Assembly: GCF_003334305.1 (NCBI RefSeq)
Contig: NZ_QOWS01000007.1
Direction: 5' to 3' (one strand)
Length of the DNA stretch: 64,000 nucleotides
From: Escherichia coli
Lineage (GTDB): Bacteria; Pseudomonadota; Gammaproteobacteria; Enterobacterales; Enterobacteriaceae
Shown: positions 48,874 through 50,496 of the stretch, piece after piece
How the letters are laid out: each line of letters opens with the position of its first letter
Numbering within the stretch: the first letter of the stretch is position 1
Program-made: the position numbers and the translations under genes
The notes under the pieces: model-generated
Databases searched by the model: none
Seen by the model: the letters and a program-made list of their open reading frames with translations, nothing else
Told to the model about the DNA's origin: nothing

Positions 48874-50496
48874 ATGAATACTCTCCCAGAACATTCATGT
48901 GACGTGTTGATTATCGGTAGCGGCGCAGCCGGACTTTCACTGGCGCTACGCCTGGCTGACCAGCATCAGGTCATCGTTCTAAGTAAAGGCCCGGTAACGG
49001 AAGGTTCAACATTTTATGCCCAGGGCGGTATTGCCGCCGTGTTTGATGAAACTGACAGCATTGACTCGCATGTGGAAGACACATTGATTGCCGGGGCTGG
49101 TATTTGCGATCGCCATGCAGTTGAATTTGTCGCCAGCAATGCACGATCCTGTGTGCAATGGTTAATTGACCAAGGGGTTTTGTTTGATACCCACGTTCAA
49201 CCGAATGGCGAAGAAAGCTACCATCTGACCCGTGAAGGTGGACATAGTCACCGTCGTATTCTTCATGCCGCCGACGCCACCGGTAGAGAAGTACAATCCA
49301 CGCTGGTGAGCAAGGCGCAGAACCATCCGAATATTCGTGTGCTGGAGCGCAGCAACGCAGTTGATCTGATTGTTTCTGACAAAATTGGCCTCCCGGGCAC
49401 GCGACGGGTTGTTGGCGCGTGGGTATGGAACCGAAATAAAGAAACGGTGGAAACCTGCCACGCAAAAGCAGTGGTACTGGCAACCGGCGGTGCGTCGAAG
49501 GTTTATCAGTACACCACCAATCCGGATATTTCTTCTGGCGATGGCATTGCTATGGCGTGGCGCGCAGGCTGTCGGGTTGCCAATCTCGAATTTAATCAGT
49601 TCCACCCTACCGCACTGTATCACCCACAGGCACGCAATTTCCTGTTAACGGAAGCACTGCGCGGCGAAGGCGCTTATCTCAAGCGCCCGGATGGCACGCG
49701 TTTTATGCCCGATTTTGATGAGCGCGGCGAACTGGCCCCGCGCGATATTGTCGCCCGCGCCATTGACCATGAAATGAAACGCCTCGGCGCAGATTGTATG
49801 TTCCTCGACATCAGCCATAAGCCCGCCGATTTTATTCGCCAGCATTTCCCGATGATTTATGAAAAATTGCTCGGGCTGGGGATTGATCTCACACAAGAAC
49901 CGGTACCGATTGTGCCTGCTGCACATTATACCTGCGGTGGTGTAATGGTTGATGATCATGGGCGTACGGACGTCGAGGGCTTGTATGCCATTGGCGAGGT
50001 GAGTTATACCGGCTTACACGGCGCTAACCGCATGGCCTCGAATTCATTGCTGGAGTGTCTGGTCTATGGCTGGTCGGCGGCAGAAGATATCACCAGACGT
50101 ATGCCTGATGCCCACGGCGTCAGTACGTTACCGCCGTGGGATGAAAGCCGCGTTGAGAACCCTGACGAACGGGTAGTAATTCAGCATAACTGGCACGAGC
50201 TACGGCTGTTTATGTGGGATTACGTTGGCATTGTGCGCACAACGAAGCGCCTGGAACGCGCCCTGCGGCGGATAACCATGCTCCAACAAGAAATAGACGA
50301 ATATTACGCCCATTTCCGCGTCTCAAATAATTTGCTGGAGCTGCGTAATCTGGTACAGGTTGCCGAGTTGATTGTTCGCTGCGCGATGATGCGCAAAGAA
50401 AGCCGGGGGCTGCATTTTACGCTGGATTACCCGGAACTGCTCACGCATTCCGGTCCATCGATCCTTTCCCCCGGCAATCATTACATAAACAGATAA
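48874..50496 (+). CDS. nadB: L-aspartate oxidase NadB, 540 aa
   Basis: ORF track 48874..50496; N-terminal FAD motif [10 protein letters not shown]. Confidence 0.95.

Follow-up and report, generated by a model that had tools for sequence, protein, structure and literature searches.

In this study, we examined the junction at which nadB and trmN (also named yfiC or trmN6) converge in Escherichia coli, working within a window of 64,000 nucleotides, that is, the whole stretch of DNA analysed (contig NZ_QOWS01000007.1). The two coding sequences share 16 nt at 50481-50496, and we consider it probable that this overlap arose neutrally as the genome was compacted and has since been locked in place, with each transcript terminating diffusely in the partner gene and no regulatory role needed. 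The analysis demonstrates the anatomy of the overlap, its phylogenetic distribution, the ancestral end of NadB and the constraint imposed by TrmN.

nadB, encoding the 540-aa L-aspartate oxidase, occupies 48874-50496 on the plus strand, as given by its open reading frame (ORF), the PGAP annotation and a match to the L-aspartate oxidase PDB 1CHU over residues 1-540 of 540 with an E-value of 0. trmN, encoding the 245-aa tRNA1-Val m6A37 methyltransferase, lies at 50481-51218 on the minus strand; its identity rests on the ORF, the annotation, the C-terminal motif and the protein-cluster name, tRNA1(Val) (adenine37-N6)-methyltransferase. The 3' end of nadB reads CAT TAC ATA AAC AGA TAA, with the TAA stop at 50494-50496 (+), and that of trmN reads GCT TTT TAT CTG TTT ATG TAA, with the stop at 50483-50481 (-). 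The segment common to both strands, TTACATAAACAGATAA, is delimited alike by the sequence, the ORFs and PGAP. On the plus strand it comprises the last base of the His536 codon followed by Tyr-Ile-Asn-Arg-stop, and on the minus strand the last base of the Phe241 codon followed by Tyr-Leu-Phe-Met-stop; nadB and trmN thus form a convergent coding overlap between two protein-coding genes on opposite strands. The 16-nt overlap that the earlier note had reported is thereby confirmed, from the sequence and from the RefSeq PGAP ends. On an identical E. coli chromosome (L001), PGAP places nadB at 14675-16297 (+) and trmN at 16282-17019 (-), and the ends agree.

An annotation artefact is ruled out, given that the same ends are found in RefSeq PGAP and in 76 of 79 species and that the crystallised E. 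coli NadB is 540 aa long. Moreover, the overlap is independent of start-codon choice because the stop codons alone define it. The longest trmN ORF is in fact 285 aa, starting at a GTG at 51338 instead of the annotated ATG at 51218 (245 aa), which leaves the 3' end unaffected; this longer form would reach to about 10 nt from the divergent srmB start at 51350. A search of 5426 complete E. coli genomes found the 601 bases spanning the junction in every one. One of the 5426, E. coli BH212 (NZ_CP029239.1), has the 601-nt query split into two matches, the best of which covers only 65%, and carries a hypothetical-protein annotation on the nadB side, which suggests an insertion or rearrangement that breaks the nadB 3' end. 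The length of the overlap is statistically unremarkable since the three plus-strand frames that enter the trmN 3' end meet their first stop after 16, 8 and 78 nt; the non-random part is its conservation.

By scanning one genome per species for TrmN, we obtained 80 loci, all from Enterobacteriaceae and with TrmN identities of 71-96%, of which 79 carry nadB. The overlap is exactly 16 nt in 76 of these 79 species, 8 nt in two and 12 nt in one. In the three exceptions the nadB tail is frameshifted, giving unrelated tails, and use is made of other antisense stops within the same TrmN tail, namely T-TYA-TG for the 8-nt overlaps and the Leu codon TTA for the 12-nt overlap. Read in the trmN direction, the overlap follows the pattern TTY TAY YTN TTY ATG TRR (Phe-Tyr-Leu-Phe-Met-stop). 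The stop of nadB arises as the antisense of three bases, the last of the Phe241 codon and the first two of the Tyr242 codon (T, then TA), such that YTA is read as TAR. The Phe241 codon is TTT in 53 species and TTC in 24, yielding TAA and TAG, respectively, as the nadB stop; either synonymous state therefore keeps the stop, since both read as stop codons on the opposite strand. Upstream of the stop, the antisense of TAY-YT is ARR (Lys or Arg), that of N-TT is AAN (Asn or Lys) and that of Y-AT is ATR (Ile or Met), while the antisense of G-TR is YAC, which specifies His or Tyr according to whether the trmN stop is TGA or TAA/TAG. The NadB tails observed, [H/Y][I/M][N/K][K/R], display exactly the variation forced by the trmN antisense.

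Third-position entropies at the four degenerate trmN codons within the overlap are 0.90, 0.71, 1.32 and 0.52, and the same residues elsewhere in trmN have means of 0.62 for Phe (range 0.17-0.82) and 1.08 for Leu (0.27-1.71) and a value of 0.96 for Tyr. Since the values within the overlap fall inside these gene-wide ranges or near them, with no reduction, the nadB frame adds no detectable constraint. Judged from these codons, the last four residues of NadB are passengers, determined by the synonymous sites of trmN and by its choice of stop codon. An alternative is that the NadB extension has gained a function, for example as a basic tail, and that both frames are under selection. In favour of such dual coding, Lys or Arg is invariably the last residue of the tail, which 76 of 79 species retain, but the K/R, N/K, I/M and H/Y choices are precisely those that the antisense of TAY-YTN-TTY-ATG-TRR forces, and the trmN synonymous sites vary freely, altering the tail residues as they do so. 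Three species also have frameshifted, unrelated tails, the outgroups described below have no extension, and the tail lies beyond the conserved fold. We give dual-coding selection only a very slim chance of being correct. As a counterpoint to the neutral reading that we prefer, none of the 76 species has a nonsense mutation that shortens NadB within its two to three free codons, a possible sign that the tail is weakly selected.

The conservation of the overlap is accounted for by protein-level constraint on TrmN alone, and selection on the overlap itself is unnecessary. A library-wide search returned 150 TrmN representatives, and 110 full-length sequences (37-53% identity) were aligned with the E. 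coli protein to give 111 rows. All rows but one (110) have Phe or Tyr at position 241; Tyr is found at position 242 in 109 rows and Leu at position 243 in 101, and the chain ends exactly two residues past position 243 in 81 of the 111 proteins. The C-terminal motif, LT..FYL.x, is family-wide and is seen in distant homologues. An AlphaFold2 model of TrmN computed on this alignment has a mean pLDDT of 93.3, and the C-terminus is confidently placed in the modelled structure since the final ten-residue block (236-245) averages 94. Any TTY-TAY pair in the FYLxM motif includes the triplet YTA, and hence a TAA or TAG on the opposite strand; as long as the motif is kept, this fixes the nadB stop, and the overlap stays at 16 nt. 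It should be borne in mind that family-wide conservation would also be expected of an overlap selected for a regulatory purpose.

The end of NadB differs between Enterobacteriaceae and their relatives. Structural homologues of NadB (the S. tokodaii L-aspartate oxidase, FrdA and SdhA) align to it only up to residues ~518-523, and the tail is therefore outside the conserved fold, their alignment stopping at about residue 520. Enterobacteriaceae share a conserved tail of the form GPS[IV]LSP up to P533, after which two to three residues vary, and the length of the tail differs by one codon between Escherichia and most other genera. We then compared the genomic context of more distant TrmN proteins, with the organisms identified from cluster names; one further outgroup locus (P0013), on a 1.6-kb contig, gave no informative neighbourhood. 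In Yersinia (L084), trmN is followed by a 70-nt spacer and a convergent nadB, and in a relative with the same ung-grcA-srmB-trmN-nadB-rpoE order (L087) the trmN-nadB spacer is 119 nt. In Hafnia (L082 and L083), a gene for a 459-aa branched-chain amino-acid transporter (Pfam PF05525; locus positions 4006-5385) lies between trmN and nadB, and in Rosenbergiella (L086) rpoE comes directly after trmN, with no nadB at the site. NadB of Yersinia, L087 and Hafnia ends in ...P(K/H)PTIL(H/Q)P, in alignment with ...SGPSILSP533 of E. coli, and the Enterobacteriaceae protein thus has an extension of six to seven residues, the outgroup proteins ending at the residue aligned with P533. In E. coli this lineage-specific C-terminal extension, delineated within nadB (+) by the outgroup alignment, comprises residues 534-540 (GNHYINR). 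What remains of the spacer is the 8 nt between the P533 codon and the trmN stop (50473-50480, +), a distance that is 5 nt in most other genera. The relatives that lack the overlap thus have a shorter NadB followed by a spacer (70 nt in Yersinia, 119 nt in L087), as stop loss and 3' extension would produce; in these data the boundary between overlap and spacer is bracketed only between ~71% and ~54% TrmN identity. A homologous-protein search for TrmN gave matches of 71% identity or more, every one from Enterobacteriaceae, and so did not narrow this interval.

Two features of individual lineages deserve mention. The Yersinia spacer contains a hairpin (L084 3795-3821) with an 8-bp stem, AGGGCGCA-(11 nt)-TGCGCCCT. 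A consensus terminator scan of that spacer returned no match, the 11-nt loop exceeding the limit of the scan; this hairpin may be an ancestral shared terminator that was later lost. In Intestinirhabdus alba (L023 3723-4121), nadB is gone from between trmN and rpoE, with ~430 bp left and trmN intact, and a 132-aa relic ORF on the nadB strand ends in ...PHINR followed by a stop. This relic of the nadB tail is preserved because it overlaps trmN. The loss of nadB from I. alba could imply auxotrophy for an NAD precursor.

Our model for the origin of the overlap is as follows. In an ancestor of the Enterobacteriaceae, a short spacer between nadB and trmN would have been deleted along with the original nadB stop, probably in a single event. 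Translation of nadB would then have run on for six to seven extra codons to the first in-frame stop. That new stop would be the antisense of the Phe-Tyr codons of the conserved FYLxM of TrmN, and would be immovable for as long as the motif is kept. Each mRNA would extend into the partner gene as antisense RNA, and the 3' ends would most likely be diffuse, arising from Rho acting on the untranslated antisense tail or from occasional head-on encounters between polymerases. The effect on expression is probably small. We infer the single deletion, the mode of termination and the absence of a regulatory effect from the evidence taken together.

The earlier note had stated that neither gene has a terminator of its own. 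This holds in that there is no intergenic DNA at the junction, and scanning several hundred nt on both strands revealed no convincing intrinsic terminator; Rho-dependent termination would be compatible with the sequence. A consensus terminator scan of 49900-51500 gave four weak sites, against 1.9 +/- 1.5 expected in shuffles, and the promoter and terminator consensus scans together gave weak matches alone, within the shuffle expectation. Folding of 241-nt windows on both strands was no better than that of shuffled sequences (z = -0.45 and 0.02). No bidirectional intrinsic terminator, in which a GC-rich hairpin has an A-tract before it and a U-tract after it, was found at or near 50481-50496.

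We considered whether cryptic intrinsic terminators might be embedded in the partner coding sequence, giving precise 3' ends and a designed pair. There are two candidates. The minimum-free-energy fold contains a 10-bp GC-rich hairpin within the trmN coding sequence, 75 nt beyond the nadB stop (50571-50597), and the scan found a weak plus-strand site at 50611-50623, the only one on the nadB strand past the nadB stop, with a 5-bp stem that includes two G-U pairs and is followed by CTTCGTTTTC. A wider pattern, in which TransTermHP predicts overlapping terminators for 146 of the 165 convergent MG1655 excludons (PMC12288877), would also favour embedded terminators. Nevertheless, the number of scan sites is within shuffle expectation, the larger hairpin is followed on the nadB strand by CAGCAGC with no U-tract, the alignment shows no conservation of the T-run at 50624-50633 and no Term-seq 3' end is listed at the matching MG1655 coordinates. 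As a conserved RNA structure, the 50571-50597 hairpin was rejected: in an alignment of 81 sequences the paired fraction of cells is 62%, which is also the mean for shuffles, and covariation is absent; on this alignment the hairpin is an accident specific to the Escherichia lineage. We therefore regard embedded terminators as highly unlikely. Diffuse termination, as our model has it, would find a plausible substrate in the nadB-sense RNA at 50577-50776 (+), which is C-rich and G-poor (80-nt windows starting 80-200 nt past the stop have a C content of 0.33-0.38 and a G content of 0.15-0.28) and is a candidate Rho loading region on the untranslated antisense tail.

Since the coding sequences overlap with no intergenic terminator, the nadB and trmN transcripts must overlap when both are expressed. 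ExcludonFinder lists nadB-yfiC, together with mltF-tadA, yfiM-kgtP and csiE-hcaT, among the 165 convergent excludons of MG1655, detected by RNA-seq in at least 50% of 58 MG1655 transcriptomes (NAR 2025, PMC12288877, Table 1); nadB-yfiC was not individually studied in that paper. This classification is a further counterpoint to the neutral reading. With respect to the 3'-end mapping that the earlier note called for, the transcript overlap is thus reported by RNA-seq (PMC12288877), and published Term-seq gives no 3' end at the junction (PMC7815308). Specifically, Adams et al. 2021 (PMC7815308) list neither nadB, yfiC nor trmN by name in their Term-seq and Rho-dependence tables, and nothing at MG1655 2711500-2712699, within ~550 nt of the junction, a silence that low expression could produce; these tables do include genes near nadB and trmN, which serve as a control. 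Likewise, no nadB/yfiC duplex is among the entries listed in the p19 dsRNA-capture tables (PMC7373196), which low expression could again explain.

Other convergent pairs in the window provide a frame of reference. The shorter overlaps that the earlier note mentioned are borne out by sequence and annotation: tadA and mltF have TTAA in common at 35808-35811, and yfiM and kgtP have CTAA in common at 62902-62905. RefSeq annotates the overlaps of nadB/trmN, mltF/tadA and yfiM/kgtP. A fourth overlap, absent from the earlier note, spans 9 nt at 5277-5285, where csiE (+, ...GAA TCA GCA TGA) meets hcaT (-, ...CCC TCA TGC TGA). By our count from the annotation, the window has 11 convergent pairs, of which these 4 overlap. 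At yfiM/kgtP, Term-seq places 3' ends of kgtP 61 and 92 nt past its stop, within the yfiM coding sequence (PMC7815308), which correspond to window positions 62841 and 62810, the latter coinciding with the CGCCCCGAAGGGAGCGG hairpin. An RNase III duplex captured by p19 maps to window 62883-62903 and extends into the first two bases of the overlap (PMC7373196). Given the kgtP 3' ends within yfiM and the captured duplex, antisense pairing of 3' ends is real for yfiM/kgtP. At the next convergent pair, srmB/yfiE, which has a 208-nt spacer, each transcript is Rho-terminated antisense to its partner (Adams et al. 2021, PMC7815308), and Rho therefore polices convergent read-through in this neighbourhood. 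The two Rho sites, at MG1655 2713962 (-) and 2714601 (+), lie by coordinate offset at approximately 52416 and 53055 of the window.

These data bear on the possibility that nadB/trmN is a functional convergent excludon, in which the overlap is selected and transcription of one gene damps the other, via polymerase collision or RNase III cleavage, so as to couple NAD synthesis to tRNA-Val modification. The pair's place among the 165 convergent excludons in at least half of the 58 transcriptomes and the retention of the overlap in 76 of 79 species are consistent with this, and the antisense 3' ends and p19-captured RNase III duplex of the neighbouring yfiM/kgtP indicate that such a mechanism operates in the region. 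TrmN protein constraint, however, fully explains the conservation, and the tables searched list no Term-seq end, Rho region or dsRNA entry for the pair. The coupling is also dispensable, in that relatives sharing the gene order separate the two genes by a spacer or an inserted gene, or lack nadB at the site, and Intestinirhabdus retains an intact trmN after losing nadB. The products of nadB and trmN are not known to be functionally linked, and both genes are weakly expressed, which likewise counts against this explanation. On balance, we consider a functional excludon improbable. A more specific version, in which an excludon was hard-wired at the base of the Enterobacteriaceae, such that NAD scarcity derepresses nadB, trmN expression falls and tRNA1-Val carries less m6A37, we judge very unlikely. 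If it were true, cofactor status and tRNA modification would be tied together by the excludon, with head-on collisions or RNase III cleavage of the mRNA duplex as the route.

In its origin, a neutral nadB/trmN overlap resembles other short tail-to-tail overlaps, in which a stop is lost and the frame runs on to a stop supplied by antisense codons of the neighbour, and it is of the same kind as the 4-nt TTAA and CTAA overlaps of the window. It differs from the usual 4-nt class in being longer, at 16 nt, and in being pinned by the family-wide FYL at the C-terminus of the partner, and because it is pinned in this way its length is unusually stable across the family. Older work by Fukuda and colleagues, and by Kingsford and colleagues in 2007, is said to extend the stop-loss model to convergent pairs. 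The model has been described for same-direction overlaps (PMC3887535) and for short overlaps (PMC2478687). The convergent excludons catalogued with ExcludonFinder, nadB-yfiC among them, are like nadB/trmN in being convergent pairs whose transcripts necessarily overlap (PMC12288877). Those excludons that have been studied show reciprocal expression, RNase III processing and often opposing functions, whereas nadB/trmN gives no signal at the junction in the data sets searched. The bidirectional or overlapping terminators between convergent E. coli genes (SEnd-seq; head-on collision model, bioRxiv 10.1101/2022.10.23.513370) share with nadB/trmN tight packing and termination in the partner's territory. 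In contrast, the SEnd-seq cases have one intergenic bidirectional hairpin flanked by A- and U-tracts, and nadB/trmN has neither intergenic DNA nor such a hairpin.

Both the overlap and the excludon idea were already known, the former from standard annotation and the latter from a catalogue entry, and the way in which the overlap arose is one of a well-described class. The present analysis contributes a worked example of how an overlap originates and persists, with a stop codon held in place by the neighbour's conserved motif on the opposite strand. Ending NadB at P533 and separating the two genes would probably be harmless, a point of use in engineering. More generally, the example cautions that the phylogenetic conservation of an overlap, or its designation as an excludon, is not evidence that the overlap itself has been selected.
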